From NCBI GenBank assembly GCA_041665325.1, contig JBAYJB010000003.1, positions 1,502 to 65,501 on the forward strand: 64,000 bases of DNA, written 5' to 3'. The notes below the pieces were generated by a model. That model was not told where the DNA came from. It did not search any database and saw only the letters and a program-made list of their open reading frames with translations. The position numbers were made by a program, and so were the translations under genes. Positions 18,225 through 46,540 of the stretch are shown in pieces (positions within the stretch are counted from its first letter, which is position 1; every line of letters begins with the position of its first letter). The DNA comes from Minisyncoccota bacterium. Lineage in GTDB: Bacteria > Patescibacteriota > Minisyncoccia > Phycocordibacterales > PALSA-1337.

Positions 18225-18301
18225 GGTGGTAAGGGTACTATAACATGGCCTATTTGCAAAGTTTAATTGAAAAAACAGGCCCAAAATGCTAGCATGGCCC
18301 C

Positions 18302-19126
18302 ATGTCAACGGCCGTCACCGTCATCCGCCCCAAGCGGTTATTCCACCTCGCCGACCTCAAGGAACTCTGGAATTACCGGGAGCTTTTGTATTTCTTCAGC
18401 TGGCGGGACCTCAAGGTACGCTACAAGCAGACAGCGATCGGCGTCCTCTGGTCGGTCCTACAGCCCTTCATCACTATGGTGGTGTTCTCGTTCTTCTTCG
18501 GCAAGCTCGTCCAGGTGCCGTCTGACGGAGTGCCCTATCCGATCTTCGTGTACACCGGCCTCCTATTCTGGCAATTCTTTTCCGACTCCTTGAATGAGAC
18601 CAGCAACTGTCTCCTGGCCAACAAAGCCATCGTCACCAAGATATACTTCCCGCGACTGATCCTGCCGATCTCTTCTGTACTGACCAAGCTCGTGGACTTC
18701 GCGATCGCCGCGGTCATCATGATCGGTCTCATGTTCTACTATGGATATGTGCCAAGTTGGGGCGGCCTACTCATGCTGCCGCTCTTACTCGTCCTGACAT
18801 TCATGGCCGCGGTCGGGCTCGGCCTCGTCCTGGCTTCGATCAACGTCAAATATCGCGATGTGCGCTACGCCCTGCCCTTCTTCATCCAGATACTACTCTT
18901 CGTCACGCCGGTCATATATCCGGCATCGCTCGCCGGAAGCTATTCGAAGTTTCTGGCCTTGAACCCGATGATGGGCGTGATCCAGAGCGCCCGCGCGGCT
19001 CTCCTCGGCACTACACCGATCAACTGGACGCTCATCCTGACTTCGGCGATCGGCGGACTCATCCTGCTAGGCATCGGCTTGGTCTACTTCAAGAAAACAG
19101 AGAGGTACTTCGCAGATATCATATAG
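18302..19126 (+). CDS. wzm: ABC-2 type polysaccharide export permease (Wzm/TagG/KpsM family).
   Basis: LWNYRELLYFFSWRDLKVRYKQTAIGVLWSVLQPF is the ABC-2 permease signature. Six TM segments, 274 aa. Confidence 0.85.
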   Translation: MSTAVTVIRPKRLFHLADLKELWNYRELLYFFSWRDLKVRYKQTAIGVLWSVLQPFITMVVFSFFFGKLVQVPSDGVPYPIFVYTGLLFWQFFSDSLNETSNCLLANKAIVTKIYFPRLILPISSVLTKLVDFAIAAVIMIGLMFYYGYVPSWGGLLMLPLLLVLTFMAAVGLGLVLASINVKYRDVRYALPFFIQILLFVTPVIYPASLAGSYSKFLALNPMMGVIQSARAALLGTTPINWTLILTSAIGGLILLGIGLVYFKKTERYFADII

Positions 19127-19164
19127 ACATTATAAACTCACACTGGCGGCAGCAATCTAACATC

Positions 19165-19722
19165 ATGAAGCAGAAAGATAACGGTATGCTAGTGTGGATA
19201 ACGGGATTACCTGGTTCCGGCAAGACAACGCTAGCAAACGCTGTATACAAAAAAATAGGTCTTGTTATCCCAGCCATACATATCGACGGCGATCACTTCC
19301 GGGCGATCATGGGTAATGATCTGGGACACAGCATGAAAGACCGTTTAGAAAACGCCTATCGAATAACACGCCTCAACAAACACCTGACTGATCAAGGTAT
19401 CACGGTCATCTGTTCGACAGTCTCGTTGTTCAGGGAAATACACAGATGGAATAGAAAAAATCACAAAAAACTGATGGAAATATATATCGATACTCCCATG
19501 GATATCCTAATGAGGAGAGACCAAAAAGGGATGTATACCGGTGCAGCAAAGAAACAAGTCAAGAATGTACGTGGCTTCGACCAGGGTTTCGATATGCCGC
19601 AAAAACCCGATATGATCATAAGGAATACGGGCAGTCTAAAGAACTTCTTGCTCCATACTGAGAAGATTGTCAGAACTATAAAAAGAAGGAATATATCTCA
19701 TGAAAAAAAGACCAGAAAATAA
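19165..19722 (+). CDS. Adenylylsulfate-kinase-fold enzyme, CysC-like. In context it is most likely a Cj1415-type cytidine-diphosphoramidate 3'-kinase.
   Basis: P-loop LVWITGLPGSGKTTLA and APS-kinase core (HIDGDHFR...LGHS..DR.EN..R...L..GI.VI.S..S..R..R.......EIYIDTP). 186 aa. Its end overlaps the next gene by 23 nt. Confidence 0.8.
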   Translation: MKQKDNGMLVWITGLPGSGKTTLANAVYKKIGLVIPAIHIDGDHFRAIMGNDLGHSMKDRLENAYRITRLNKHLTDQGITVICSTVSLFREIHRWNRKNHKKLMEIYIDTPMDILMRRDQKGMYTGAAKKQVKNVRGFDQGFDMPQKPDMIIRNTGSLKNFLLHTEKIVRTIKRRNISHEKKTRK

Positions 19723-22069
19723 AATCTTTGGCACCAAGGCAGAAACCCTAGAGCGGCTTCATGGCCACTTGAAGAAGTCGGTGGTAGACAAACTGGTGCT
19801 CTTTTCGGTCGAGGACTGGCCGAAAGAAAAATCTGCGATCGTAACCAAGATCATCTCGACATTCCCGAAGAAGCTCCTGATCGTCAGGAGCAGCGCTTTT
19901 GCTGAGGACTCCACTAAGCAGTCGAATGCCGGTCACTTCGCTTCGCTTGGCAACGTGAAGTGCTCCGCTCCGAAGATCGAGAAGGCCGTGGAGGAGGTGA
20001 TCAGCAGATATGACGGAGATATCCGCAACCAGGCCTTCGTCCAAGAACATATCACCGACGTAGACCTAAGCGGCGTCGTCTTCACCAGAGACGTCAACAA
20101 TCTCGCCCCTTACATGACGATAAACTACGACGACTCTAGCGGTCGTACCGATACGATCACTTCCGGTCAGAGCACCGCTCATAAGACGCTCGTCATCTAT
20201 CGGGAGAAGAGGCCTATGCTGACGGACCAGAGGCTCATGAAAGTATATGCGGCAGTGGAGGAACTCGAGAAAGTACTGAAGAGCGATAGGCTCGATATCG
20301 AATTTCTCTACAAGAAGGGAGTGGTGCATATCTTGCAGGCTCGACCTCTCACCGCCAAGACCAAAGAAGCACCCAGCCTCGACAGCGTCTCCGAGATCGT
20401 GCGAGGCATCAGCGACTACATGCGTGAATCTAACGCACCGCATCCGGACCTCTACGGCGACGATACATTCTACGGGATTATGCCTGACTGGAATCCGGCC
20501 GAGATGATCGGCATCAAACCGAGACCACTGGCCTTGTCGCTCTATCGAGAGCTCATCACTGACAGCATCTGGGCGTTCCAGCGCGACAACTACGGCTACA
20601 AGAGGCTGCGCAGCTTCCCTCTCCTGGTGTCGCTCGCGGGGCATCCCTATATCGACCTGCGCGTCGACTTCAACTCGTTCATACCCAAGGCCCTCGATGA
20701 CGATCTGTCTCATCGGCTGGTGAATTTCTATCTCGACAAATTGCGTTCCGTGCCGGCGAGCCACGACAAGATCGAATTCGACATCGTCTATTCCTGCTAC
20801 ACGCTCGATCTGGACGCTCGTCTCATGGAGCTCAAGAGACACGGCTTTTCTGCCAAGGACCGGCAAGCGATCAAAGATTCACTGCTCGAACTGACCAATA
20901 AGATCATCCGTCCCGACGGACTATATAAGGAAGACCTCAAGAAGATAACCACTCTCAAGAAGAGGCTCAAGCCCCTACTCGAATCGAGGCTCACTGAAGC
21001 CAAGAAGATCTACTGGCTTATCGAAGACTGCAAGCGCTACGGCACCCTGCCTTTTGCCGGCATCGCCAGGGCGGCCTTCATCGCCATCCAGCTTTTGGAC
21101 TCTATAGTCAGCCTCGGCATCATCTCCATCGAGGAGAAAAATCTCTTCCTCAGCACTATGAATACAGTAGCCAGACACCTGTCAGAAGATATGGACAAGC
21201 TCAATAGAGGGAAGCTCCCGATCAAGGCCTTCCTCAAAAAATACGGGCATCTCCGTCCGGGGACCTACGACATCCTGTCTGAGAGCTACGAGGAGAATTT
21301 CCACAAATACTTCGACCGCGGCACCAGAGCCGCGGAACCGAGCGCGGACCACCCCAAGAAACTAACGCTCTCTTCCATACAGATGAAGAAGATTGACCGT
21401 CTGCTCAAGAAGCATGGTTTGGCAGTCGATGCCGATGAGTTTTTCCTCTTCATGAAGGAAGCCATCGAGGGACGCGAGTATGCCAAGTTCGTATTCACGC
21501 GAAATATCCATGAGATCCTCAAATCGATCAAGGCTTATGGGACGAGAATCAGTGCTACGCCGGAAGATATGTCGTACGTCGAGATCGGGGCGCTTATGAA
21601 GATGCATTCGGCGGTAATTTTGCCGATTGAAGAGAGGAAGCTCCTCGAGGATATCAAAGCCAACCGAGCTAGGCACAAGCTCAACCGCTTCGTAAAGCTG
21701 CCCCAGCTCATAACACAGCCGGAAGACCTCTATCATTTCTACATGGATAGCATCGAACCGAACTATGTGACCAGCGAGTCGGCCATCGGAAACGTCGCCA
21801 CCATCATCCGCAACACGAGCACCAAAAACATCAAGGGCAAGATCGTGTGTATCGAGAATGCCGATCCAGGCTTCGACTGGATCTTCTCGCATAAGATCAA
21901 AGGCCTGATCACCGCCTACGGCGGCGCCAATTCCCACATGGCTATCCGCGCCGCCGAACTGAACATCCCCGCCGTTATCGGTTGTGGTCCGGCGCTCTTC
22001 GATAAATGGAGCAACGCGAAGAAGATGAAGATCGACTGTCTCAATAAGAAATCCGATGTCCTCTCCTAA
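19700..22069 (+). CDS. PEP-utilizing dikinase-family enzyme (PPDK_N ATP-grasp plus C-terminal phosphohistidine swivel domain). Candidate Cj1418-type L-glutamine kinase.
   Basis: 789 aa. The C-terminal mobile-domain motif IVCIENADPGFDWIFSHKIKGLITAYGGANSHMAIRAAELNIPAVIGCG has the conserved His. There is no TIM-barrel PEP-binding domain, as in rifampin phosphotransferase, glucan-water dikinase and Cj1418. Confidence 0.75.
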   Translation: MKKRPENKIFGTKAETLERLHGHLKKSVVDKLVLFSVEDWPKEKSAIVTKIISTFPKKLLIVRSSAFAEDSTKQSNAGHFASLGNVKCSAPKIEKAVEEVISRYDGDIRNQAFVQEHITDVDLSGVVFTRDVNNLAPYMTINYDDSSGRTDTITSGQSTAHKTLVIYREKRPMLTDQRLMKVYAAVEELEKVLKSDRLDIEFLYKKGVVHILQARPLTAKTKEAPSLDSVSEIVRGISDYMRESNAPHPDLYGDDTFYGIMPDWNPAEMIGIKPRPLALSLYRELITDSIWAFQRDNYGYKRLRSFPLLVSLAGHPYIDLRVDFNSFIPKALDDDLSHRLVNFYLDKLRSVPASHDKIEFDIVYSCYTLDLDARLMELKRHGFSAKDRQAIKDSLLELTNKIIRPDGLYKEDLKKITTLKKRLKPLLESRLTEAKKIYWLIEDCKRYGTLPFAGIARAAFIAIQLLDSIVSLGIISIEEKNLFLSTMNTVARHLSEDMDKLNRGKLPIKAFLKKYGHLRPGTYDILSESYEENFHKYFDRGTRAAEPSADHPKKLTLSSIQMKKIDRLLKKHGLAVDADEFFLFMKEAIEGREYAKFVFTRNIHEILKSIKAYGTRISATPEDMSYVEIGALMKMHSAVILPIEERKLLEDIKANRARHKLNRFVKLPQLITQPEDLYHFYMDSIEPNYVTSESAIGNVATIIRNTSTKNIKGKIVCIENADPGFDWIFSHKIKGLITAYGGANSHMAIRAAELNIPAVIGCGPALFDKWSNAKKMKIDCLNKKSDVLS

Positions 22070-22075
22070 TATATT

Positions 22076-22855
22076 ATGAAAGCTATCATCTTAGCGGCAG
22101 GCATGGGAAAGAGGCTCGGCAAGTATACGGCCAATCTGCCCAAGGGTATGCTCTCATTCCGAGGCGAGACTCTGATAGAGAGGCAGGTCAGAACGCTCCG
22201 CTCCTGCGGGATAAAAGATATCTCCATCGTGACCGGTTACGAGGCCAAGAAGATCACTATCCCGGACGTGAAGTATTATCACAACAAAAGATATGCAGAG
22301 ACGAATATGGTCGAGAGCTTGTTTTGTGCCGAGAAAGAACTAAAAGGAGATGTGCTCATCGCTTATTCAGATATCATTTATGAAGATCGAGTAATCAAAC
22401 AAATGATTGAGAGCCTGGCGGATATCGGAGTTGCTGCCGATGAGGATTATCAGGGATACTGGAAGGCTCGTCTCGACAATGAGACAGACGACTTGGAAAG
22501 TCTGGTTGTAGCAAGCGGCCAAATCATCGAGCTTGGCGTTCCCTGCGGCCCGGATAAGGCCGCACTGCGCTACGTCGGCCTGATCAAGTTGTCTTCCAAG
22601 GGAGTAGCAAATATTAAGGAAGTCTATACGGAGAATAGAAAACGCTTCTTTGATTCGAGCGCTCCCTGGTTGGGATCTAAGTCTTTCAAACAGGGCTATA
22701 TGACGAGCCTGCTTCAAGCTACCATTAACGCAGGTCATGAAGTGAAGCCAGTCGTGATTCGCCGGGGTTGGATGGAATTCGACACTGAAAATGATTATGA
22801 GAGAGCCGAGGTTTGGGCCAATAAAGGCAGCTTGGGGAGATTCATAAAATTATGA
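22076..22855 (+). CDS. Nucleotidyltransferase (LicC/Cj1416-like cytidylyltransferase family).
   Basis: N-terminal MKAIILAAGMGKRLG (GxGxR) nucleotidyltransferase motif. 259 aa. Confidence 0.75.
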   Translation: MKAIILAAGMGKRLGKYTANLPKGMLSFRGETLIERQVRTLRSCGIKDISIVTGYEAKKITIPDVKYYHNKRYAETNMVESLFCAEKELKGDVLIAYSDIIYEDRVIKQMIESLADIGVAADEDYQGYWKARLDNETDDLESLVVASGQIIELGVPCGPDKAALRYVGLIKLSSKGVANIKEVYTENRKRFFDSSAPWLGSKSFKQGYMTSLLQATINAGHEVKPVVIRRGWMEFDTENDYERAEVWANKGSLGRFIKL

Positions 22856-23541
22856 AAAAGAATCAGATCGTTGGCATCACACAAAGAGTCACCGTCAACA
22901 AAAATGGCGTCAGGTGTGACACATTGGAACAGAACTACAGTACCTACTTCTCCGCTCTCGGAGTCACTCTCATACCGATACCGAACGACCTCACGAGTGT
23001 CTCCAGCTTCATCGAGTCGACACATATGAGCAAGCTTATCTTCTCCGGCGGCGGAGATATCGATCCTGATCTTTATGGCGGCAAAAGAAAAGATCCGGCC
23101 TCGTATACTGCCGATAGAGAACGAACCGAGAAAGAGCTATTCGCTTATGCGCAGAAGTCCGATATGCCCGTCCTAGGCATCTGCCGCGGCGCGCAGATGA
23201 TCAATGTGCTCTCCGGAGGAAAGCTCCTAGACCTTCGGGAGACATATGGACCGGTTCACGGGCATGTTAAAACATTCCACGACGTCGAGATAGTAGCTGG
23301 CCTCATAACCGGACTGCCAAAGGGGCCAGCGAAGGTCAACTCCTATCATGACTTTGGTTTCACCAAAAAGGAGCTAGGCCAAGGACTGGTGGCTTTCGCC
23401 AAGGCCAAGGACGGCATTGTCGAAGGCATCGGGAATATAGATAAAAAGATATATGGTATATTATGGCATCCAGAACGCGACGGCATAGACCGAGAAGAGT
23501 TGACCAAGAAGATTATCGAAGCTTTTTTATCCGATACATAA
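22852..23541 (+). CDS. Class I glutamine-amidotransferase-like / peptidase C26 hydrolase (Cj1417-like gamma-glutamyl hydrolase candidate).
   Basis: Catalytic triad motifs PVLGICRGAQMIN and ILWHPERDG. 229 aa. ATGA start/stop overlap with the upstream gene. Confidence 0.75.
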   Translation: MKKNQIVGITQRVTVNKNGVRCDTLEQNYSTYFSALGVTLIPIPNDLTSVSSFIESTHMSKLIFSGGGDIDPDLYGGKRKDPASYTADRERTEKELFAYAQKSDMPVLGICRGAQMINVLSGGKLLDLRETYGPVHGHVKTFHDVEIVAGLITGLPKGPAKVNSYHDFGFTKKELGQGLVAFAKAKDGIVEGIGNIDKKIYGILWHPERDGIDREELTKKIIEAFLSDT

Positions 23542-23551
23542 ATACATCTAT

Positions 23552-24313
23552 ATGAAACAAGGCGACTTTACAACTCTGGCGAAGAACTACATCCACCGCG
23601 CCGGATATTCGCCACTTGTGCTCGAGACTATATATAAGTATGCCGGATTTACTAAAGACACCCTGATCGCCGACGTGGCGGCCGGCACCGGCAAACTTAC
23701 AGAGAACCTCTTGGCCTACCCGAGTAGAAAGCTATTCTGTATCGAACCGAATGATGCCATGAGGGAGGAAGGCGGCAAATATATAAATGATAAAAGAGTC
23801 AGTTGGGCCAAGGGATCGGGCGAAAAGACCGGACTACCGACGGCTTCCATAGACTGGGTGACCGTGGGTTCGGCCTTCCACTGGATGGACTTGGTCGTGA
23901 CCCTGGGAGAATTCCATCGGATCCTCAAGCCCGGCGGCGTCTTCACAGCCATCTGGAATCCTCGCGATATCTCCGGTAGCGAACTACACAGTAAGATCGA
24001 GAAGAAGATCCATGATATGGCGCCTTTTATCGAGAGGAAGTCTTCCGGCTCCGGAAAATACACCGAAGACCTAGACGAGAAGATCGTCAGCACCTCCCAG
24101 TTCCGTGACATCATATATATGGAAGCCAAACATGAAGAAAAGATGAGCAAGGAAAGATATATGGGCATATGGGATTCCGTCAATGACATTCCCGCTCAGA
24201 CCGGACCGGAGCTCTGGGACAAGATCCTCGCCGAGATCAGAGCGATCATCGAGCCCTACGGTGAGATCATTGTGCCCTACAAGACCCGATCCTGGACTGC
24301 ACGAAAAGTGTAA
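23552..24313 (+). CDS. Class I SAM-dependent methyltransferase (Cj1419/Cj1420-like candidate).
   Basis: Motif I IADVAAGTGKLTENL, a motif II/III-like VTVGSAFHWMD, and LKPGGVF. Confidence 0.75.
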   Translation: MKQGDFTTLAKNYIHRAGYSPLVLETIYKYAGFTKDTLIADVAAGTGKLTENLLAYPSRKLFCIEPNDAMREEGGKYINDKRVSWAKGSGEKTGLPTASIDWVTVGSAFHWMDLVVTLGEFHRILKPGGVFTAIWNPRDISGSELHSKIEKKIHDMAPFIERKSSGSGKYTEDLDEKIVSTSQFRDIIYMEAKHEEKMSKERYMGIWDSVNDIPAQTGPELWDKILAEIRAIIEPYGEIIVPYKTRSWTARKV

Positions 24314-24323
24314 GGATAGCAAA

Positions 24324-25859: not shown

Positions 25860-25874
25860 CTTAAACAAGAAGAC

Positions 25875-27155
25875 ATGAGCAAACCGATAATAGAAGTCAG
25901 GAATATTAGCAAGCGCTACGATATCACACATACGCATGGCGGCTATGTGGCCTTGCGCGATGTCCTGACAACGATCATGCGTCGGCCATTCTCCTTCTTG
26001 GCGCACAAGGCCAAGCGCGCCGTCGGCCTCGAGAAAAAAGAAGAATTCTGGGCGCTCAAAGATGTGAGCTTCGCCGTAAATAGGGGCGAGGTCATCGGGG
26101 TAATCGGCGCGAACGGCGCCGGCAAGTCCACCCTGCTCAAGATACTCTCCCAGATCACGCCGCCCACCGGAGGCGAGGTCATCCTGCGAGGCCGGGTCGG
26201 CTCCCTTCTTGAGGTCGGTACCGGCTTCCATCCAGAATTGACCGGTCGCGAAAATATCTTCTTGAACGGGGCCATCCTCGGCATGAAGAAACAGGAGATC
26301 GCCGCGAAGTTCGATCAGATCGTCGACTTCGCAGGGATCGAAAGATTCTTAGATACACCTGTCAAGCACTATTCGAGCGGTATGTATGTGCGGCTGGCTT
26401 TCTCCGTAGCCGCTCACATGGAGCCGGATATCCTCCTCGTCGACGAAGTCCTAGCTGTAGGTGATGCAGAATTCCAGAAGAAATGCCTCGGTAAGATGGA
26501 CGAGATCACTAGGAATGAAGGCCGAACTATCATCTTCGTGAGCCATAGTCTGAATACGATCCGAGACCTATGCCCAACTACAATCTTGATGAAGGAGGGG
26601 CGTATAGACCTAGTCGGTCCGACCGACGAAGTGATCGACCATTATCAGGAAGAGATCAAGGGGCTGCGCTCTATCGATCTTCGAAATGAAACTAGGAGGC
26701 GTGGCACCGGAGCAATCAAATTGACAGATTTTTATGTCGAAAACTCTGACGGAAGCAAATCAACCATGGTCAAAAGCGGAGAATCCACCACTTTCGTATT
26801 GTCTTATGAGTGCGCAAAACCAGAGAATGTAAAAACTGCTGATGTTGGCATATCTATAAATAGGAACGGGGCACCAATCGCGACTTTTTATAGTTCATAC
26901 GTCAAGAGCTCCTTATCCGACATTGCTACATCTGGACAATTCCGCTTCTCGGCCGAAAATATTCCGCTCGCTGAAGGCACTTACGGCATTGGCGCACGCG
27001 TACTTGCGAATGATGTCGAGGCCGACTGGCCAAAATCAGAAATCGGCCAACTCGAGGTTTCAAATCCGACAGAATTCAAGGAGAAAGGATTTCGCACGGG
27101 GGCGGGCTCAGCAGTCATCATAAATGGCCTTTGGAGTCACATCCCTTCCAAATGA
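25875..27155 (+). CDS. wzt: ABC transporter ATP-binding protein Wzt/TagH-type with a C-terminal carbohydrate-binding (Wzt_C-like) extension.
   Basis: Walker A GVIGANGAGKSTLLKIL, signature YSSGMYVRLAFS, Walker B ILLVDEVLAVGD. A ~150-aa C-terminal beta-rich extension follows. 426 aa. Confidence 0.85.
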   Translation: MSKPIIEVRNISKRYDITHTHGGYVALRDVLTTIMRRPFSFLAHKAKRAVGLEKKEEFWALKDVSFAVNRGEVIGVIGANGAGKSTLLKILSQITPPTGGEVILRGRVGSLLEVGTGFHPELTGRENIFLNGAILGMKKQEIAAKFDQIVDFAGIERFLDTPVKHYSSGMYVRLAFSVAAHMEPDILLVDEVLAVGDAEFQKKCLGKMDEITRNEGRTIIFVSHSLNTIRDLCPTTILMKEGRIDLVGPTDEVIDHYQEEIKGLRSIDLRNETRRRGTGAIKLTDFYVENSDGSKSTMVKSGESTTFVLSYECAKPENVKTADVGISINRNGAPIATFYSSYVKSSLSDIATSGQFRFSAENIPLAEGTYGIGARVLANDVEADWPKSEIGQLEVSNPTEFKEKGFRTGAGSAVIINGLWSHIPSK

Positions 27156-27868
27156 AAAAAACGTTGAAAGCCATGATCCGAGCGTTAGTCAAGCTGATTC
27201 CGCTCGAATTTATTGAGCAGATGATTTCCTTGAAGATGGGCTATCCAACGATCTCGTATGGTCCAAACGGAGAAGACGCCATTTTAAGGAACATGCTCCG
27301 CGGCATAAGCGGCGGCTTCTACATAGATGTTGGCGCATATCATCCCAATAGGTTTTCTAATACACGCACCTTTTACAATGATGGCTGGTCCGGCATAAAT
27401 ATAGATGCGATGCCAGGTAGCATGAAAGCGTTCATGAAAGAGCGCCCCAGAGATATCAACCTCGAATCAGCCGTATCTGACAGGACCGAGACATTGACAT
27501 ATCACGTGTTTGCGGAACAAGCATACAACACCTTCTCTCATGAATTGGCAACGGAGTGTGTAAAGTCAGGGAAAAACAAAATACGCGAGATAAAACTCGA
27601 CACGATGCGGCTTGTAGACATCCTCGATGAGTACATGCCGAAAGACAAAATAATAAATTTGCTTTCGATCGATGTGGAGGGATACGATATGGCGGTTCTC
27701 CGATCAAATGATTGGATAAGGTATCTCCCCGAGGTCATAGCTATAGAAGAAATTGGCTTCGACGTCGAGGCTCCCCAGAAATCAGAGATATTCAACTTCC
27801 TCAAAAGCAAAGGTTACCATCTGGAAGTGGCTATGCCCAAAACGATATTTTTCCGTCTACACAAATGA
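27152..27868 (+). CDS. FkbM-family SAM-dependent methyltransferase.
   Basis: GFYIDVGAYHPNRFSN...GINIDAMPGSMKAF...ESAVSDRTETLTYHV matches the FkbM-family pattern. Start placed at MKKTLKAM, forming an ATGA overlap with the wzt stop. Confidence 0.75.
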   Translation: MKKTLKAMIRALVKLIPLEFIEQMISLKMGYPTISYGPNGEDAILRNMLRGISGGFYIDVGAYHPNRFSNTRTFYNDGWSGINIDAMPGSMKAFMKERPRDINLESAVSDRTETLTYHVFAEQAYNTFSHELATECVKSGKNKIREIKLDTMRLVDILDEYMPKDKIINLLSIDVEGYDMAVLRSNDWIRYLPEVIAIEEIGFDVEAPQKSEIFNFLKSKGYHLEVAMPKTIFFRLHK

Positions 27869-29574
27869 AACCACTTAAGACCCCTATCCTGTTCATTGCC
27901 TTCAATCGTCCAGGACCTACTAAGGATGTTTTTGCGGAGATCCGTAAGGCACGCCCCGAAAAACTCTTCGTGGCAGTCGATGGCCCGAGAAAAGACCGGC
28001 CAGAAGATGTGGACAAAGTAAACAAGGTTCAGGAGATAGTGAGCCAAGTAGACTGGCCATGTGAAGTAAAAAAACTCTTCAGAACAGAGAACCTCGGATG
28101 CAAAATCGGCGCGACTTCGGCTATCACATGGTTCTTCGAACATGTCGAGGAAGGCATCATTGTGGAAGACGACTGTCTGCCGGAACAATCCTTCTTTGCC
28201 TTCTGTTCTGAAATGCTCGAGCATTTCCGCAATGAGCCGAGGGTAGCCATGATCTGCGGGTATAACATAGAGAAGACTTCTGATCTTCCGTATTCCTATA
28301 CCTTCTCACGCTACGGACATCTCTGGGGCTGGGCTTCATGGAAAAGGATCTGGGATCAATACGATGTGACCATGAAAGTTTGGGACAATATTGATAACCG
28401 CAAGAAGATTAGAAAAGCCATGGATGATTATCGGCAATGGAATTATCGCGAGTGGCTATACAATGAGACCTACGAGGGTCGCAAGGATACGTGGGACTAC
28501 CAGTGGGAATCATATCGCCTACTTCATAGTCAGATCTGCGTGATCCCAAATAGGAACATGATCAGAAATCTGGGTTTTGGCGCCGATGCCACTCACACCA
28601 AGCAAACTACTTCGCACCTCGTCATTCCAGGACAAACCATGAAGTTTCCTCTAGCACATAATCCAGACCTGGTAGCCAGTGACTACTATGATCGACTACT
28701 CCGCCCCAAGATCAAAGCCCAAAGCCGACTGCGGAGATCGCTCAAGGATAGAAGCTTTAGACTGGGGAAACTATTGCTCCCGCCATTCATATATCAGTTA
28801 GTCAGGAAGCTCATCCGGGGCACAAAAGTATGGAAGCCTATCTGGAATACCCTTGATTATGAACCGATGGCCGGAGTGAAGATGTTCTTTGACCCTTCCG
28901 GCTCCTGGCAGAGCAAGATGAAGAATGGGTCGTATGATAAGTTCATGTTCGACCGAGTATCCGCCATCGGCGCCGAAGGCAAGGTGATCTACGATATCGG
29001 TGCACATGTCGGATACCATTCCCTCTATTTCGCCCGGCTTGTTGGTAAAAACGGCAAGGTTATCACGATTGAACCTAATAAGAAGAACTTTGAGCGCCTA
29101 AAGAAGAACATAGACGAAAACAAGGATCTGAAAGAAAGGATATCAGCATTTAATATTGCGGTTGGAGACAAGGATGGGAAAGTGGAATTCAACATAAATG
29201 AAGATGTCGAGGGAGGTCGTAGCACTGGCAGCTTCATAGGCACGGCCGACACATTCTCAAGCCGCGAGACATATAAGAATAAGGGGTTCACAAAAACTTC
29301 TGTTGACCTAGTGACTATAGATTCATTTGAGAAGATGCTTAGCATTCACGACGCTCCAGACATCATCAAAATCGACGTTGAGGGCGCCGAGTCATTGGCT
29401 CTCGAGGGCGCCAGGGGAATCTTACTCGCTAAGAAACCGGTGCTTTTTGTCGAGATCCATTCGATGAGAAACATGTCAGATGTCATGAACTTCTTACACT
29501 CGATATCATATGAGGCCAAGATCGCTAATATTGAGGGCAATGGGGTGTGTTATATAGAGGCACACGCTAAGTGA
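27865..29574 (+). CDS. Fusion of a GT-A-fold glycosyltransferase-like domain (EDD motif) with a C-terminal FkbM-family methyltransferase.
   Basis: N-domain ILFIAFNRPGPTKDVF...LFVAVDGPR...GIIVEDDCLP. C-domain VIYDIGAHVGYHSLYFARLVGKNGKVITIEPNKKNFERLKKNI...IIKIDVEGAESLALEGA is classic FkbM. ATGA overlap with the upstream gene. Confidence 0.7.
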   Translation: MKPLKTPILFIAFNRPGPTKDVFAEIRKARPEKLFVAVDGPRKDRPEDVDKVNKVQEIVSQVDWPCEVKKLFRTENLGCKIGATSAITWFFEHVEEGIIVEDDCLPEQSFFAFCSEMLEHFRNEPRVAMICGYNIEKTSDLPYSYTFSRYGHLWGWASWKRIWDQYDVTMKVWDNIDNRKKIRKAMDDYRQWNYREWLYNETYEGRKDTWDYQWESYRLLHSQICVIPNRNMIRNLGFGADATHTKQTTSHLVIPGQTMKFPLAHNPDLVASDYYDRLLRPKIKAQSRLRRSLKDRSFRLGKLLLPPFIYQLVRKLIRGTKVWKPIWNTLDYEPMAGVKMFFDPSGSWQSKMKNGSYDKFMFDRVSAIGAEGKVIYDIGAHVGYHSLYFARLVGKNGKVITIEPNKKNFERLKKNIDENKDLKERISAFNIAVGDKDGKVEFNINEDVEGGRSTGSFIGTADTFSSRETYKNKGFTKTSVDLVTIDSFEKMLSIHDAPDIIKIDVEGAESLALEGARGILLAKKPVLFVEIHSMRNMSDVMNFLHSISYEAKIANIEGNGVCYIEAHAK

Positions 29575-29578
29575 TCAC

Positions 29579-30520
29579 ATGAAGATCCACATCATCACTA
29601 TTTTCGACAAGAATCGCCTCGGGAGAGCCCTAGCGTTCAGAGAGTCGCTTGCAAAATATGCTCCCGGTTGCCATGTGCGCTTCCTTTGTCTTGACCAGGA
29701 GGCATACGATATGACCAACCGGCTCAATCTCGACGATACTACCGCTATGCTTCCGGAGGAGCTAGATGACAAGGAACTTCTAGCCACACGTGCTGGACGA
29801 ACCAATCCGGAGTTCGCGTCGACTTGTAAGCCGGCACTGCTCTCCTACATGATGGAGAGTGGCGTCGTCGAACAAAACGACCTCTTGGTCTTCATAGATG
29901 ACGATTTCTTCTTCTATCAACCTCTCCTGCCCCTGTTCGAAAAGATTTATCACTCTGGTTCTATTGCCATAACCCCACACCGCTTCCCTCCTCATCGTGA
30001 ACATGAGACAGCCACCAAGGGCATATACAATGCCGGTATCGTCTTTTTCAAGAATGATCCCGAGGCGCGAAAATGCCTCAAGGAATGGCGCCTGCAGTGT
30101 CTGAAGTGGTGTTACCTGCGCTATGAGAATGGTCAGATAGGCGATCAGGGGTACCTCAGTGATTGGCCTAAGAAGTATAAGGGCGTCTATGAGATTCCGG
30201 ACATTGGCGTCAATCTCGGCACCTGGAATATCAAAAACTACAAGATTACCAGGAACGTCGGTGGAGACCTTATGATTGATGACCAGCCGCTCATCTGTTA
30301 TCACTTCCATGGGCTTAGGTTATATCTAAATAAACAGAATAAGGTACGGGCCTATCCGATCACGGTCTTACATTCAGGGATTTATAAGCCTTGCATAGAA
30401 GCCTTGGAAAAAGCCTATATAGGATTGATGATCGTAGATCCGAAGTGGGTGTATGGAACCATTGCTAGGCCAAGCATGTTGAGGCTTTTGAAACAAGCCA
30501 TCTTGAGGTTGAAATATTAA
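29579..30520 (+). CDS. Putative GT-A-fold glycosyltransferase (nucleotide-diphospho-sugar transferase-like).
   Basis: LVFIDDDFFFYQPL DxD-type motif and Rossmann-like N-terminus. 313 aa. No closer family assignment is possible by eye. Confidence 0.45.
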   Translation: MKIHIITIFDKNRLGRALAFRESLAKYAPGCHVRFLCLDQEAYDMTNRLNLDDTTAMLPEELDDKELLATRAGRTNPEFASTCKPALLSYMMESGVVEQNDLLVFIDDDFFFYQPLLPLFEKIYHSGSIAITPHRFPPHREHETATKGIYNAGIVFFKNDPEARKCLKEWRLQCLKWCYLRYENGQIGDQGYLSDWPKKYKGVYEIPDIGVNLGTWNIKNYKITRNVGGDLMIDDQPLICYHFHGLRLYLNKQNKVRAYPITVLHSGIYKPCIEALEKAYIGLMIVDPKWVYGTIARPSMLRLLKQAILRLKY

Positions 30521-30544
30521 CGCTTTAAGACTAATATCAGCCAC

Positions 30545-33175
30545 ATGCAGAAAATAGTCATAACAGGCGGGCTGGGATATGTAGGTACCGAGCTATGTAA
30601 GCTTTACTCCGGCGAGGCACGCTTCAAGAAGATTGTGGTCGTCGATAATCGATTCTTCTCGTCCCGTGTCACACAGCTCAGAGATTGGGGTATGGAATTC
30701 ATTCATGGCAACATCCTAGACAAGGATCTCATGAAATCCATTCTTGCAGATGCTGACATCGTATACCACTTGGCAGGCATCACGGATGTTTCTTATACCA
30801 AGAATGAATCAAGTGAGGCCAAAGATAGGCTTATAACTGAGGTCGGCGTTACGGGCACGAAGAATATCATCGACTACTCACCGGCAAAGGCTAAAATCAT
30901 CTTCCCTTCAACGCACGTGGTCTATGAAGGATTCGGCAAGACAAAATTCAACATCACTGAAGATGAACTAACAGTGCCGATGCTTTCATATGCTATGGGT
31001 AAGGATCAGTCTGAAAAAGATCTGATGGCATCAAAAAAGAATTATGTGATCCTCCGCTTCGGATCAGTATATGGATACTCGGAATCAGATACCATGCGTA
31101 TCAACATCATGCCGAATCTGTTCTCCAAGATCGCTTCGCAGAACGGCACAATCAGTCTCTTCTCCGGTGGAGTACAGTACAAGAGCCTGGTCTCACTCGT
31201 AGATGCCGTTCGGGGCCTAAAATTCATGGGTGAGTCAAAGATAAACCGCGAGATTTTCCATCTATGCAACGAGAACATGACGGTCAAGGAAGTGGCTGAT
31301 GTATGCAAGAAGATCAATCCATTAGTAAAGATCATTTCGACTAAGGACGAGATACCAAACTTGGGATATACCACATCAAACAAAAAGCTATTGGCTACCG
31401 GCTTCACATTTAAACACAATATTGAGAGTAGTATCGCTGAGATGATAAGCGCCTGGTCAGCCAAGGAGCTGCCGGATGCTCTGGAATATACAGTACGCGG
31501 CGACAAGGAATTCATCGATGCACGCGGCAAGATCAGCAACTATGAGCTGACGGAACCGATAAACTTGATAGGTTACATCGAATCAAAAGCCGGCACAGTC
31601 CGCGCCAATCACTACCACCCAATCCAGGAACAGAAGTGTCTTGTCATCACAGGGTCATACATAAGCGTCATCAAGGACTTGGCTTATCCAGATGCCCTAG
31701 TCGAAACGCGCCTCATCAAAGCTGGAGACATCGCTGTCATCAGGCCCAATGTAGCCCACACCATGGTATTCCTCGAGGATACGGTATTTCTCAACCTAGT
31801 GCGCGGAGAACGCGAGCATGAGAACTACGGAGTGACGCATACGATCCCTTACAAACTTGTCGACGATAAATTTAGAGACGAACTCCTCAAGAATTTCAAA
31901 CCGGAGTGCCGTTCGTGCGGTAAAAAAAACTTGAAGGACGTTGTCACCCTTGGACTTTCTCCACTAGCCAATAATCTATTACCGAACAAAGATACGCATG
32001 CCGAGATGTTCCCTCTCGAAATGAAGTATTGTCCGGATTGCCACAATTGCCAGTTGTCATTTACAGTATCGGCCCACAAACTATTTGATCACTATCTCTA
32101 TGTATCCTCGACAGCCAAAAGCTTTCGCAAGCATTTTGAAGAAGCGGCTGAACAGTATCTGAAGCAATTCAATCTCACCAAGAAGGACCTTGTTGTAGAT
32201 ATCGGCAGCAATGACGGCATTGCGCTCCGCCCTCTCAAGGCCAGAGGCATCAAAGTCCTAGGCATCGAGCCTGCCAAGAATATCGCCGACCTAGCCAACG
32301 CCGAAGGCATCGAGACCGTCAATGACTATTTTAGTAAGGCCGTCGTAGACAAGATCATCAAAGAAAAAGGCAAGGCTACCTTGATCACTGCTTCCAACGT
32401 ATTCGCTCATTCTGACTTCCTCAAGGATATCGCCATAAATGCCATGAAGCTCCTCAAGGACAACGGCCAATTCATCGTTGAGGTCCAATATCTCATGGAT
32501 ACGATTAAGGATCTGACTTTCGACAATATATATCACGAGCATGTGAACTATTGGTCGGTCACTTCGATCAACAACTTCTTTGAATGTTTGGGCTTCAAGG
32601 TCGTTAAGATAGAACATATAGATACTCACGGCGGATCAATCCGTGTCTATGTCAAGAAAGGCGGCAAACCTGACAAGAGCGTCCTTGATTCGCTCAAAGG
32701 CGAAGAGGTCTTCGGACTTAAGGATTACCAGACTTACCTTAAATTCGGACGTGATATCGCAGATTTGAGAGAAGTCGTCAAACGAAATATCGGATTACTA
32801 AAGAAGAACTACAAACACATCGCCGGATATGGGTCTCCAGCCAAAGCCACAACAGCTCTTAACTATTTCGGCATAGACAACACTCATATCGATTACATCA
32901 TCGAAGACAACGAGCTCAAGAACGGCAAAATCGTTCCTGGCGTAATGATCCCGATCAAAAATAAGCAGTACGCATTTACTCATTTACCAGAGGTCATCAT
33001 AGTCATGGCTTGGAACTTTTTCGAGGCAATCAAGAATAACAACGCCGAGTTAACCAATGAGGGCGTGATCTTCATAAACATCAAGGATTTGCAGGATAAG
33101 AATTTTAAAGTGCCAAGAAGTCTCAGGAGAATCACTAAGAATAGGGTTTCTAAGAAAAAGGCTCTAAAGAAATAA
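30545..33175 (+). CDS. Trifunctional nucleotide-sugar tailoring protein: NAD-dependent SDR epimerase/reductase + WxcM/FdtA-like cupin (sugar 3,4-ketoisomerase-type) + TylC3/NovU-type sugar C-methyltransferase.
   Basis: The SDR domain has VITGGLGYVGTELC and YAMGK (YxxxK). The cupin domain has RANHYHPIQEQKCLVITGSYISVI. The C-MT domain has a Zn-ribbon CRSCGKK...CPDCHNC followed by VVDIGSNDGIALRPL, and ends in the C-methyltransferase C-terminal region. 876 aa. Confidence 0.7.
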   Translation: MQKIVITGGLGYVGTELCKLYSGEARFKKIVVVDNRFFSSRVTQLRDWGMEFIHGNILDKDLMKSILADADIVYHLAGITDVSYTKNESSEAKDRLITEVGVTGTKNIIDYSPAKAKIIFPSTHVVYEGFGKTKFNITEDELTVPMLSYAMGKDQSEKDLMASKKNYVILRFGSVYGYSESDTMRINIMPNLFSKIASQNGTISLFSGGVQYKSLVSLVDAVRGLKFMGESKINREIFHLCNENMTVKEVADVCKKINPLVKIISTKDEIPNLGYTTSNKKLLATGFTFKHNIESSIAEMISAWSAKELPDALEYTVRGDKEFIDARGKISNYELTEPINLIGYIESKAGTVRANHYHPIQEQKCLVITGSYISVIKDLAYPDALVETRLIKAGDIAVIRPNVAHTMVFLEDTVFLNLVRGEREHENYGVTHTIPYKLVDDKFRDELLKNFKPECRSCGKKNLKDVVTLGLSPLANNLLPNKDTHAEMFPLEMKYCPDCHNCQLSFTVSAHKLFDHYLYVSSTAKSFRKHFEEAAEQYLKQFNLTKKDLVVDIGSNDGIALRPLKARGIKVLGIEPAKNIADLANAEGIETVNDYFSKAVVDKIIKEKGKATLITASNVFAHSDFLKDIAINAMKLLKDNGQFIVEVQYLMDTIKDLTFDNIYHEHVNYWSVTSINNFFECLGFKVVKIEHIDTHGGSIRVYVKKGGKPDKSVLDSLKGEEVFGLKDYQTYLKFGRDIADLREVVKRNIGLLKKNYKHIAGYGSPAKATTALNYFGIDNTHIDYIIEDNELKNGKIVPGVMIPIKNKQYAFTHLPEVIIVMAWNFFEAIKNNNAELTNEGVIFINIKDLQDKNFKVPRSLRRITKNRVSKKKALKK

Positions 33176-33220
33176 GTCATAAAGAAAACATCGGTTATCG
33201 CGCTCCGCAAAAAATTGATT

Positions 33221-34123: not shown

Positions 34124-34212
34124 GAAAGGTGTCGTTCTATCCGAAGGACGCGATATTGAGGGGATAATTTAGCAAAATACTGCCCCGAAGAAGGTGGTTA
34201 GCAAGAAGTAAT

Positions 34213-35754: not shown

Positions 35755-36450
35755 ATGAAAAATCCAATAAGAAAAATGCTAAACAAGGCCGGATTAGACC
35801 TGCGTAGACACCACCCCGAAGCCGACCGCCTGGCCTGGCTGTCGGGCATGAATATCCAGACGGTCTTCGACATCGGCGCCAATATCGGGCAGTTCGCCAC
35901 GGAGATCCGCGCCGCGTTGCCAGATGCACAGATCTACTCCTTCGAGCCACTCGCGGGATGCTACGGTAAGCTCGTCGGTGCATTCAAGGGTGATCAGAAG
36001 TTCCGCGCTTTCAACTATGCGCTCGGGGAAAGAGCGGAGAAGATCGCCATGAATAGGAGCGCTTACACGCCGAGCTCTTCCCTCCTGCCTATGGCCGATT
36101 CGCACAAAGAACTTTTCCCTCACACCAAAGATTCCTTGCCGGAGACCATAGAGGTGCGACGGCTAGACGATGTCTGGGCCGAACTCAAGCCGGTCGGAGA
36201 AGTCCTCATCAAAGCTGACACACAGGGTTACGAAGCCAGAGTCATCGCCGGAGGCCTAGAAGCGTTCAAACAAGCAAGGGCCGTACTCATTGAAGCTTCG
36301 TTTGTAGAACTATACGAAGGCCAACCGCTTTTCGACGACATATATCAGAAGCTCAAAGCTCTCGGTTTTGTCTATAAGGGCGCCTTGCACCAGAAGATCA
36401 ACAATAAAACAGGCGAGGTCATATTCGAGGACGCGATATTTACGCGTTGA
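35755..36450 (+). CDS. FkbM-family methyltransferase.
   Basis: VFDIGANIGQFATE...IYSFEPL...NYALGERAEKIAM...IKADTQGYEARV. A TAGAAT box sits 9 nt upstream of the ATG. Confidence 0.8.
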   Translation: MKNPIRKMLNKAGLDLRRHHPEADRLAWLSGMNIQTVFDIGANIGQFATEIRAALPDAQIYSFEPLAGCYGKLVGAFKGDQKFRAFNYALGERAEKIAMNRSAYTPSSSLLPMADSHKELFPHTKDSLPETIEVRRLDDVWAELKPVGEVLIKADTQGYEARVIAGGLEAFKQARAVLIEASFVELYEGQPLFDDIYQKLKALGFVYKGALHQKINNKTGEVIFEDAIFTR

Positions 36451-46533: not shown

Positions 46534-46540
46534 GATGGAA

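Follow-up and report, generated by a model that had tools for sequence, protein, structure and literature searches.

Cj1421 and Cj1422 are the genetically defined transferases of O-methyl phosphoramidate (MeOPN) in Campylobacter jejuni, and in Vibrio cholerae O1 Ogawa it is WbeT/RfbT, an FkbM-related enzyme, that 2-O-methylates the non-reducing terminal sugar of an O-antigen exported by Wzm/Wzt, a cap that is not known to gate export via a carbohydrate-binding module (CBM). CPR cells are generally held to be without an outer membrane and LPS. Methyl caps read by the carbohydrate-binding domains of Wzt proteins are established for Aquifex aeolicus (3-O-Me-Man; PMC9445017), for E. coli O8/O9a (PMC3482155, PMC11231755) and for the S-layer glycan of Geobacillus stearothermophilus (PMC2943079). 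The slg clusters of G. stearothermophilus NRS 2004/3a and Paenibacillus alvei carry wzm-wzt followed, with overlapping codons, by a methyltransferase-containing enzyme, and have a Wzy_C O-oligosaccharyltransferase (with TPR in WsfB) by the transporter; a 2-O-methyl cap has been proposed as the Wzt signal, and no phosphoramidate cassette is described there (PMC2943079). The MeOPN pathway of C. jejuni is summarised in PMC6429109 and PMC12096443.

The window analysed here is a 64,000-nucleotide stretch of DNA from an uncultured, ultra-small member of Candidatus Paceibacterota (CPR/Patescibacteria), and it holds a variable cell-surface glycan island that lies next to murB and is anchored by a Wzy_C/TPR ligase-like gene and wzm. 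Twelve close-packed plus-strand genes span exactly 18302-33175, and the conserved anchor gene is transcribed divergently from them:

16041-18224, minus strand: Wzy_C (O-antigen-ligase/O-oligosaccharyltransferase-like) membrane protein with a C-terminal TPR (Pfam Wzy_C 80.6 bits, TPR_19 68 bits)
18302-19126, plus strand: gene 1, wzm, glycan-export permease of the ABC-2 type (Pfam ABC2_membrane 62.5 bits)
19165-19722, plus strand: gene 2, APS-kinase-fold kinase (Pfam APS_kinase 125.8 bits; NCBIfam PRK05541 171 bits, cut-off 127)
19700-22069, plus strand: gene 3, L-glutamine kinase homologue of the Cj1418 type, PPDK_N plus swivelling phosphohistidine domain (NCBIfam NF004508 963 bits, cut-off 501)
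22076-22855, plus strand: gene 4, nucleotidyltransferase (Pfam NTP_transf_3 64.3 bits)
22852-23541, plus strand: gene 5, class-I glutamine-amidotransferase/Peptidase_C26 fold (Pfam Peptidase_C26 112.8 bits)
23552-24313, plus strand: gene 6, class-I SAM methyltransferase (Pfam Methyltransf_11 52.8 bits)
24324-25859, plus strand: gene 7, sulfotransferase-fold domain plus degenerate FkbM-like domain (Pfam Sulfotransfer_1 42.8 bits)
25875-27155, plus strand: gene 8, wzt, with an ABC ATPase domain (aa 1-262) and Wzt_C (aa 263-426, nt 26661-27152) (Pfam ABC_tran 81.3 bits; Wzt_C 39.0 bits, cut-off 30.4)
27152-27868, plus strand: gene 9, FkbM methyltransferase (Pfam Methyltransf_21 74.3 bits)
27865-29574, plus strand: gene 10, N-domain of a Wzm/Wzt-linked family plus FkbM methyltransferase (Methyltransf_21 82.2 bits, aa 377-549; TIGR01444 113 bits)
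29579-30520, plus strand: gene 11, conserved protein of a family without name, DDD motif
30545-33175, plus strand: gene 12, last operon gene, NDP-sugar epimerase/reductase fused to a Zn-finger C-methyltransferase (Pfam Epimerase 74.9, Methyltransf_13 53.4, Methyltransf_23 59.4, Methyltransf_14 128.3 bits)
33221-34123, minus strand: convergent conserved protein of the backbone, DAD motif
35755-36450, plus strand: FkbM methyltransferase of the backbone, outside the operon (Pfam Methyltransf_21 65.5 bits)
41499-42401, plus strand: another FkbM methyltransferase of the glycan island, farther downstream (Methyltransf_21 74.6 bits)

The initial annotation had described an operon-like ABC-transporter (Wzm/Wzt) glycan locus of 12 plus-strand genes in which wzm and wzt are split by a modification cassette, and the gene coordinates bear this out, with six genes and 6.7 kb between the two; profile matches and conserved gene clustering likewise support its assignment of the intervening genes to a phosphoramidate (MeOPN-type) cassette. 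Successive junctions measure +38, -23, +6, -4 (ATGA) and +10 nt from gene 1 to gene 6 and +10, +15, -4 (ATGA), -4 (ATGA), +4 and +24 nt from gene 6 to gene 12, so that the claim of gaps of at most 38 nt or ATGA overlaps holds everywhere except between genes 2 and 3, which overlap by 23 nt. Promoter-like matches (24, vs 22.8+/-4.0 in shuffled sequence) and terminator-like matches (20, vs 17.5+/-4.5) in the operon stay at shuffle level, and a reading of 18302-33175 as a single transcript is thus compatible with the data.

Like the systems of E. coli O9a/O8 (= K. pneumoniae O3/O5), R. terrigena/K. pneumoniae O12 and A. aeolicus, the locus pairs an ABC-2 permease with a Wzt bearing a C-terminal jelly-roll of the 5HNO, 2R5O and 6O14/8DKY fold, and as there its methyltransferase genes are translationally coupled to wzt; a polymerase-terminator logic is plausible here as well (PMC11231755, PMC9445017). 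Unlike these systems, it belongs to a CPR bacterium, its wzm and wzt stand six genes apart, and its possible chain terminators comprise enzymes of the FkbM type and one unassigned domain rather than a WbdD-like kinase/methyltransferase with a coiled-coil ruler. The Wzt matches the A. aeolicus Wzt 8DKU (phmmer, E 3e-60); its CBM is only 14-22% identical in sequence to the solved ones. The claim of a C-terminal, cap-reading CBM stood up to a fold check set beforehand: beside the Pfam Wzt_C match, the domain model (pLDDT 89.8) has as its top Foldseek matches 5HNO/5HNP (5HNO E 2e-9), 2R5O and 6O14/8DKY, the three solved Wzt carbohydrate-binding domains. The slg clusters resemble the window in their transporter genes with an overlapping methyltransferase gene after wzt and in their Wzy_C and TPR protein by the transporter, the window having such a protein at 16041-18224, a candidate for attaching the glycan to its acceptor after export; they differ in that the window has no identified S-layer or other acceptor protein and in that the enzymes are not orthologous.

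Six orthologous Paceibacterota loci share one backbone (Wzy_C/TPR, wzm, wzt, FkbM, GT-like/FkbM, gene 11 and beyond) in which wzm adjoins wzt and the cassette is missing, and genes 2-7 (19165-25859, 6.7 kb) are therefore an insertion between wzm and wzt. Three of the six (L089, L090 and L091), whose Wzt proteins are the closest to that of the window, leave a gap of 3 nt between wzm and wzt, and have no match to genes 2 to 7 (N-domain); their genes for Wzy_C/TPR, wzm, wzt and genes 9-11 (and 12, whose L091 orthologue is 78% identical) are 50-80% identical to those of the window, as are those that follow, for a 300-aa protein, an epimerase, an FkbM protein and a GT1. L092-L094 match the same backbone genes, likewise without the cassette, and cassette genes occur in 0 of the 80 loci with a homologue of the gene-10 N-domain, the cassette-free loci having been retrieved by similarity to the window's own Wzt or gene 10, which does not make for an unbiased sample, although the missing cassette is still informative. 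The Wzy_C/TPR orthologue keeps its position in L089, L090, L092, L094 and L172, and wzm, core-gene-like in its GC3 of 0.80, is 72-80% identical to that of L087, L089, L090 and L091.

Gene 9, 55-63% identical to its orthologue directly 3' of wzt in L089-L091 and with matches in the equivalent place in L092-L094 (E 4e-63 to 3e-94), follows wzt in all orthologous loci and is a candidate cap methylase. The N-domain of gene 10, glycosyltransferase-like by inspection only (EDD motif), belongs to a widespread family with 287 metagenome relatives, and of the 31 loci that extend over 12 kb or more, 18 have a homologue at most 6 kb from a long Wzt; gene 10 is a candidate terminal-sugar transferase/methylase. 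Gene 11, with no Pfam, NCBIfam or PDB match, is possibly a GT-A glycosyltransferase, again by inspection only, with an orthologue (60-64% identical) 3' of gene 10 in L089-L091 and same-position matches in L092-L094 (E 7e-139 to 3e-142), and gene 12 is predicted to act in branched or C-methyl sugar synthesis. The protein at 33221-34123 has no Pfam match, is 50% identical to its orthologue in L089-L091 and has matches also in L092-L094, and the FkbM gene at 35755 is 67-71% identical to its orthologue in L089/L090, with matches in L092/L094. Five FkbM domains had been named, two of them (35755 and 41499) outside the operon; those at 27152, 27865, 35755 and 41499 are upheld by Pfam Methyltransf_21, whereas the C-half of the gene at 24324 is a degenerate relic. 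A heavily methylated polymer is likely, which supports that part of the initial proposal. Gene 10 and the gene at 41499 recall V. cholerae WbeT/RfbT in their weak V_cholerae_RfbT matches, below the Pfam gathering score.

The cassette resembles the C. jejuni pathway (Cj1415-Cj1418) in clustering a PEP-utilizer-type glutamine kinase, a nucleotidyltransferase, a GATase-fold hydrolase and an APS-kinase-fold kinase, with a SAM methyltransferase common to both; it differs in that C. jejuni decorates internal residues of a KpsMT-exported capsule, whereas the window's cassette sits within the Wzm/Wzt operon of a CPR bacterium, has a sulfotransferase-fold protein as its adjacent transferase candidate and, on casual reading, shows no poly-G phase-variation tracts. 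Gene 2, which opens the insertion and scores below the cut-off of TIGR00455 (apsK), is a candidate Cj1415-like cytidine diphosphoramidate 3'-kinase; gene 3 has homologues, 46-52% identical, that carry the JGI name 'glutamine kinase'; gene 4 is a candidate Cj1416-like CTP:phosphoglutamine cytidylyltransferase; gene 5 is a candidate Cj1417-like gamma-glutamyl-CDP-amidate hydrolase, its best NCBIfam match being that equivalog (NF045546) at 81.5 bits, far under the cut-off of 250; and gene 6 may be the O-methylase of the phosphoramidate. Genes 2-7 are a mobile module whose core (glutamine kinase, NTP-transferase, GATase, APS-kinase and MT11) recurs in 65-74 of the 80 loci sampled, which span many phyla: an APS-kinase gene stands beside the glutamine kinase in 72, an NTP-transferase gene shares its locus in 74, gene 5 has a homologue in 72, and gene 6 has one in 65 and in every Patescibacteria cassette locus. 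The order APSK-GlnK-NTP-GAT-MT11-ST recurs in L083/84 and L087, a sulfotransferase-fold gene follows the cassette in all seven Patescibacteria loci, in 32 of 80 other loci one is found no more than about 6 kb away, and a CysQ-like Inositol_P gene lies inside three cassettes.

Gene 7 closes the insertion. Its sulfotransferase-fold domain (aa 1 to about 290) is modelled with pLDDT >90 over aa 1-260, and the family keeps the motifs RDGRDxxYS and NRxGxxGEWK, an invariant His and the 3'-phosphate-binding motifs, which makes the domain a candidate phosphoramidyl transferase using 3'-phospho-CDP-amidate. The C-terminal half (aa about 300-511, nt 25224-25859) has no Pfam match even at E<=10; it is homologous to gene 9 (BLASTP, 27% identity, E 1e-23) and is a degenerate FkbM relic: the catalytic motifs, DxGA and DVEG, have gone, and so have about 45 residues. 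This relic of a gene-9-type methyltransferase, in a gene directly 5' of wzt, could direct gene 7 to the end of the chain and so make the phosphoramidate a possible part of the cap, an observation that counts against the explanation we favour.

That explanation, to which we give a probability of roughly 0.6, is a conserved cap-reading Wzm/Wzt backbone that has acquired an inserted phosphoramidate cassette as decoration. Assembly of the glycan would take place in the cytoplasm, on a lipid carrier, before its export by Wzm/Wzt, with the Wzt C-terminal CBM reading a cap at the non-reducing end; this cap is most likely methyl-type, made by the conserved FkbM module, and we infer a methylated terminal sugar from the genes always found after wzt (9, 10 and 11). 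By homology with Cj1418, Cj1416, Cj1417 and Cj1415, genes 3, 4, 5 and 2 would make 3'-phospho-cytidine-5'-diphosphoramidate, a compound resembling PAPS, out of glutamine, ATP and CTP. From this donor the N-domain of gene 7 would pass the phosphoramidate on to a hydroxyl group of a sugar in the chain, either during chain growth or after its completion, and gene 6 would O-methylate it. The phosphoramidate is probably a side decoration and not the export signal.

Phosphoramidate or methyl groups had been proposed as that signal; the methyl half is the better supported, and the phosphoramidate half is not sustained. A (methyl) phosphoramidate from genes 2-7 that terminates the chain and is recognised by the operon's Wzt_C would be the counterpart of the methyl-phosphate cap known from E. 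coli O9a and K. pneumoniae O3 and O7, with which it is nearly isosteric (PMC11231755, PMC3482155). The cassette does lie within the transporter operon, wzt begins 15 nt 3' of gene 7, and the gene-9-type C-half of gene 7 may dock at the chain end; moreover, the cassette shares a gene cluster with a Wzt_C-bearing Wzt in four other loci (L087, L083/84, L003 and L009), directly abutting it in L087, L084 and L003, whose Wzt_C domains form a separate clade across two phyla (mutual E 1e-24 to 1e-40). The window's Wzt_C, however, falls in another clade with no significant similarity to those of L087, L084 and L003, and groups with three of the six cassette-free orthologues, L089-L091, compared residue by residue at 58-62% identity, a level that does not guarantee the same ligand; these are equally distant from one another (55-62%). 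In L172, which has the same anchor and other downstream genes, Wzt_C is just 43% identical, so that the CBM tracks the downstream glycan genes. The conserved partners of the window's wzt are FkbM genes and not the cassette, which is absent from all six orthologous loci keeping wzm-wzt-FkbM-GT/FkbM-gene 11 and elsewhere also accompanies Wzx-type flippases, a setting in which a terminal cap would be pointless, and Wzt_C is present in 118 of the 120 nearest Wzt proteins whatever their context; a phosphoramidate signal is accordingly quite unlikely.

Phosphoramidate and methyl might instead share one terminal residue, the methyl part being ancestral and the cassette adding a second, non-essential epitope, as would suit an insertion placed exactly between the transporter genes, the kinship of the pseudo-FkbM domain with gene 9, and a fusion that is unique, its C-half having no other matching protein among 1.84 billion representatives, which suggests local adaptation; yet that domain may be a mere recombination scar and is unstructured in the AlphaFold model (pLDDT <50), and we consider a composite cap unlikely. 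It is very improbable that genes 2 and 7 serve plain sulfation, with gene 2 supplying PAPS as an APS kinase and gene 7 using it to sulfate the polysaccharide, so that the polymer would be sulfated rather than phosphoramidated. In favour of this reading, Pfam matches the two to APS_kinase and Sulfotransfer_1, the PDB matches of gene 2 are APS kinases, and the 50 best PDB fold matches of gene 7 are all PAP(S)-bound sulfotransferases. Against it, there is no ATP sulfurylase among the scanned ORFs of the window, gene 2 passes the PRK05541 subfamily cut-off and not that of the apsK equivalog, and the 5'-phosphosulfate-loop lysine of canonical sulfotransferases is, by inspection, not conserved in the gene 7 family. 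The two genes are, besides, embedded among and co-occur with glutamine kinase, nucleotidyltransferase and amidohydrolase genes across dozens of phyla.

Beyond a cap-reading exporter that has probably gained a decoration, the comparison yields two new leads: the relatives L087, L084 and L003 may hold a clade of phosphoramidate-reading CBMs, and sulfotransferase-fold proteins emerge as candidate phosphoramidyl transferases.

The operon at 18302-33175 (+) is a glycan-export operon of a CPR bacterium into which a phosphoramidate module of the MeOPN type has been captured. Both ingredients are known already, namely export by Wzm and Wzt with a cap-reading carbohydrate-binding module (CBM), and the MeOPN phosphoramidate pathway.

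Genes of the operon (all plus strand), with family matches
Gene 1: wzm; ABC2_membrane, 62.5 bits
Gene 2: APS-kinase fold; above the cut-off for the PRK05541 subfamily (171 bits against 127), below that for the apsK equivalog (133.4 against 138.7)
Gene 3: PPDK_N and PEP-utilizers; NCBIfam NF004508, 963 bits against a cut-off of 501
Gene 4: NTP_transf_3
Gene 5: Peptidase_C26/GATase; best NCBIfam match NF045546 (gamma-glutamyl-CDP-amidate hydrolase, Cj1417), 81.5 bits, under the 250-bit cut-off
Gene 6: Methyltransf_11
Gene 7: Sulfotransfer_1, 42.8 bits against a cut-off of 22, followed by a C-terminal half (25224-25859) without a Pfam family
Gene 8: wzt; ABC_tran, 81.3 bits, and Wzt_C, 39.0 bits against a cut-off of 30.4
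Gene 9: FkbM, 74.3 bits
Gene 10: N-terminal domain without a family match (27865-28884), then FkbM, 82.2 bits
Gene 11: no family match
Gene 12: fusion of an epimerase and a C-methyltransferase

An ORF listing with inspection of start codons places the twelve genes at exactly these limits, and the tight junctions described in the initial annotation are correct with one exception, genes 2 and 3, which share 23 nt (distances in order: +38, -23, +6, -4, +10, +10, +15, -4, -4, +4 and +24 nt, the largest intergenic gap being 38 nt). The operon is bordered by a divergent Wzy_C/TPR gene upstream and a convergent gene downstream, and one transcript for the whole is plausible; matches to promoter and terminator consensus sequences do not outnumber those in shuffled sequence. 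In the 77-nt divergent intergenic region (18225-18301), the sequence TTGAAA-17-TAGCAT, with a TG upstream, resembles a sigma-70 promoter and stops 7 nt before the wzm ATG, so that the transcript could have no leader or a very short one. An obvious Shine-Dalgarno sequence is absent from most of the operon's genes. The genes for SecA, MurB and the Wzy_C/TPR protein are found upstream; downstream lie FkbM genes at 35755 and 41499, many GT1, GT2 and GT-C genes and a GtrA fusion. A TrwB/VirD4-like or HerA-like (DUF87) ATPase gene at 53061-54902 (-) adjoins this glycosyltransferase block, and two minus-strand ORFs, 45268-46899 (an MT23 and GT2 fusion) and 46541-48307 (a PMT_2 GT-C), share about 360 nt in the ORF listing, and the former probably starts further in.

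Genes 1 and 8 are predicted to encode the Wzm ABC-2 permease and the Wzt nucleotide-binding protein of a glycan exporter, the latter matching Aquifex aeolicus Wzt (8DKU) at E 3e-60. Residues 254-426 of Wzt were modelled from an alignment of 60 homologues (pLDDT 89.8), and the top Foldseek matches of this domain are Raoultella terrigena O12 5HNO and 5HNP (E 2.4e-9 for 5HNO; TM 0.65-0.71), with E. coli O9a 2R5O (E 6.7e-7) and A. aeolicus 6O14 and 8DKY also found, 8DKY being the A. aeolicus Wzt carbohydrate-binding domain with 3-O-methyl-mannose bound. The CBM-like fold proposed from sequence for the C-terminal extension is therefore upheld, in that its best PDB matches are solved Wzt carbohydrate-binding domains. 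It is important to stress that, among the 120 Wzt proteins nearest to this one, 118 carry Wzt_C, the named ones all from Patescibacteria, so the domain is a default of the lineage and its presence is uninformative about the cassette.

The C-domains closest to that of the window's Wzt (58-62% identity) belong to Wzt proteins from three loci, labelled L089, L090 and L091, which share with the window the flanking AI-2E transporter, SecA and MurB genes and, at 50-80% protein identity, a backbone of Wzy_C/TPR, wzm, wzt, genes 9, 10 and 11 (and gene 12), an opposite-strand conserved unknown, an epimerase, an FkbM gene and a GT1 gene. There only 3 nt separate wzm from wzt, and genes 2-6 and the gene 7 N-domain have no match anywhere in the three loci. 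A metagenome scan with gene 10 adds three further loci (L092-L094) in which the same backbone genes are matched and no cassette genes occur; cassette genes are likewise found in none of 80 loci with the gene 10 N-domain. Because the orthologous loci are cassette-free, the 6.7-kb block at 19165-25859 (+) is a lineage-specific insertion between wzm and wzt. The earlier observation that a modification cassette splits wzm from wzt is confirmed. No direct or inverted repeats flank the insertion and no tRNA or Rfam match was found in the window, and thus there is no mobile-element signature. Nor is composition distinctive, with a GC content of 0.499 in the cassette and 0.479 in the rest of the operon; the sole step, within 18302-35220, comes after wzm: GC3 is 0.72-0.80 in the core genes and wzm and drops to 0.46-0.65 in gene 2 and all genes that follow, up to and including the epimerase gene at 34213, except for gene 3 (0.72). 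In a further locus, L172, the same MurB/Wzy_C/wzm/wzt anchor is followed by wholly different downstream genes, and the CBM is only 43% identical to that of the window. The GC3 step and this exchange of cargo behind a shared anchor together point to a hypervariable glycan island that begins right after wzm.

The inserted genes resemble the phosphoramidate pathway to differing degrees. Gene 3 is assigned by its profile and by the names of its homologues (glutamine kinase in JGI naming) as a putative L-glutamine kinase of the Cj1418 family. Gene 2 falls within PRK05541, which we take to be the Cj1415 (cytidine diphosphoramidate 3'-kinase) subfamily. Gene 4 matches the general NTP_transf_3 family only and is a candidate CTP:phosphoglutamine cytidylyltransferase (Cj1416), an assignment based on its co-location with the kinase. 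No C. jejuni Cj1415-1418 structure was among the PDB sequence-search matches. A glutamine-kinase profile scan of species-representative genomes gave at least 595 confirmed relatives, with no Patescibacteria among the matches listed; the 80 loci kept span Omnitrophota to Pseudomonas, Shewanella and Lachnospiraceae. Homologues of gene 4 lie beside the kinase in 74 of these, of genes 5 and 2 in 72 each and of gene 6 in 65, and wzm/wzt accompany it in only two (L003 and L009). The phosphoramidate pathway thus behaves as a mobile six-gene module of many phyla, including the genome-reduced CPR, that can enter an existing export operon.

In all seven Patescibacteria loci with the closest glutamine kinases (52-60% identity), a Sulfotransfer_1 gene directly follows the cassette, and three of the seven hold within it a CysQ-like Inositol_P gene, absent from the window, which would fit a need to clear a PAP-like 3',5'-bisphosphate left over from group transfer.

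CysQ-like Inositol_P genes (3'(2'),5'-bisphosphate nucleotidase family) in Patescibacteria cassettes
L083, 2926-3684
L084, 3710-4468
L088, 12334-13092

Across the 80 other loci, 32 have a sulfotransferase-fold gene at most about 6 kb from the kinase, as found with HMMs of two such families; the second of these, of the Sulfotransfer_3 type (e.g., L005, 5260-6588), is near the kinase in 24 of the 80, in diverse phyla. The N-domain of gene 7 gave a confident model whose 50 top Foldseek PDB matches are all PAP(S)-bound sulfotransferases (TMt 0.42-0.64). Its family keeps RDGRDxxYS and NRxGxxGEWK, the counterparts of two 3'-phosphate-binding motifs, together with a histidine, and R102/S110 and R221-x-G223 are conserved in 52 homologues. 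The domain is accordingly predicted to have a sulfotransferase fold with 3'-phosphate-binding motifs. By inspection the lysine of the 5'-phosphosulfate loop is not conserved in the family, no ATP sulfurylase was found among the window ORFs scanned, and the genomic partners of genes of this type are phosphoramidate genes. The product of the Cj1415-type kinase is 3'-phosphorylated CDP-amidate (PMC6429109, PMC12096443), and because of this a PAPS-type fold would be logical for a phosphoramidyl transferase. The decoration and transfer steps of the pathway were still described as uncharacterised as of 2025 (PMC12409886). For transfer, a sulfotransferase-fold protein that is a recurrent neighbour of the module and fits a PAPS-like donor is a concrete candidate open to testing; in the window, the sulfotransferase-fold domain of gene 7 is the candidate for the role that Cj1421/Cj1422 have in C. 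jejuni. A limited literature search, which is no proof of novelty, returned no paper linking MeOPN or Cj1421 to a sulfotransferase, and in a similarly limited search on phosphoramidate in Patescibacteria the best matches made no mention of phosphoramidate.

The C-terminal half of gene 7 is where the initial annotation, which had counted five FkbM domains, needs correction: four stand by Pfam (PF05050/TIGR01444, cut-off 22.7 bits), in genes 9 and 10 and at 35755 (65.5 bits) and 41499 (74.6 bits), and the aligned FkbM genes have the SAM-binding DxGA and D-x-E-G motifs. The gene 7 C-half has no Pfam match even at E<=10. It is nonetheless a homologue of gene 9 (E 1e-23) that has SIDP in place of DVGA, LDQES in place of IDVEG and a deletion of about 45 residues, and so it reads as a degenerate copy of a gene-9-type FkbM domain whose SAM-binding and catalytic motifs are lost. 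Its predicted model has a pLDDT below 50, and it may either be a scar of recombination or serve in targeting. A word-indexed homologue search with gene 7 retrieved the protein itself and one other; an exhaustive HMMER search found no second example of the C-half or the fusion among 1.84 billion representative proteins.

What, then, does the exporter read? We favour, with a probability of roughly 0.6, a methyl-type cap as the export signal, the phosphoramidate being an added decoration. The window's Wzt_C is no more diverged from its cassette-free orthologues than these are among themselves (55% identity), and the L172 comparison indicates that the CBM changes together with the downstream glycan genes. 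This type of CBM always has the FkbM gene 9, the gene 10 fusion and gene 11 as neighbours; genes 9 and 10, candidate cap-installing terminators, adjoin wzt in all six orthologous loci. Methylated terminal sugars are established ligands of Wzt carbohydrate-binding domains (PMC9445017, PMC11231755, PMC3482155), and the S-layer glycan clusters of monoderms, which combine wzm-wzt-methyltransferase with a Wzy_C(+TPR) O-oligosaccharyltransferase, provide a precedent (PMC2943079). The large gene 10 N-domain family has 287 metagenome relatives, and of 31 loci that are 12 kb or longer, 18 have it within 6 kb of a long Wzt; the domain, fused to FkbM in the window, is fused to a TylF O-methyltransferase in Bacteroidota (L003, 16274-17995), a pairing with methyltransferases that recurs in Wzt_C systems. 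It has no PDB sequence match, the sole match of gene 11 is insignificant (E 0.92), and Pfam at E<=10 offers nothing useful for either or for the gene at 33221. The earlier suggestion that phosphoramidate or methyl groups act as the export signal is thus partly supported, its methyl half being the better supported and its phosphoramidate half disfavoured for the window.

That a (methyl) phosphoramidate is a new class of chain-terminating cap, read by the Wzt domain as the export signal, seems to us unlikely. Under such a scheme, a sulfotransferase-fold phosphoramidyl transferase would install phosphoramidate from a PAPS-like 3'-phospho-CDP-amidate; in the window, the pseudo-FkbM domain would direct gene 7 to the end of the chain, and the CBM would tolerate or read the resulting phosphoramidate terminus. 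The fusion of gene 7 to a gene-9-like pseudo-methyltransferase leaves a little room for terminal phosphoramidation here, at similarly long odds. The idea fits better a second set of Wzt C-domains, which we call clade A, because there wzt directly abuts the cassette.

Cassette-abutting Wzt proteins whose C-domains form clade A
L087, 8173-9447 (Patescibacteria)
L084, 3-737 (Patescibacteria)
L003, 6243-7538 (Bacteroidota)

These C-domains are 36-46% identical to one another (E 1e-24 to 1e-40) across phyla between which NBD identity is only 60%, and they have no detectable similarity to the window's Wzt_C clade. Against the 120 nearest Wzt homologues they give weak matches only (best about 1e-7), none near 1e-24 to 1e-40, and a clade A domain occurs in 0 of 26 cassette-free Wzt proteins compared, a sample biased by the use of the window's own genes to find the cassette-free loci. 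This pattern is what a phosphoramidate-reading CBM would produce, and clade A is a candidate for one.

Two testable by-products emerge, both as candidates: a sulfotransferase-fold phosphoramidyl transferase and a phosphoramidate-linked CBM clade. Orthologous loci with and without the cassette, together with a second CBM clade tied to it, amount to a natural experiment on a possible role of a P-N group as an export cap. The locus suggests an elaborate, variable and methyl-rich surface glycan next to a PglL/WsfB-like ligase, and such a glycan bears on how CPR episymbionts appear to their hosts and to phages.
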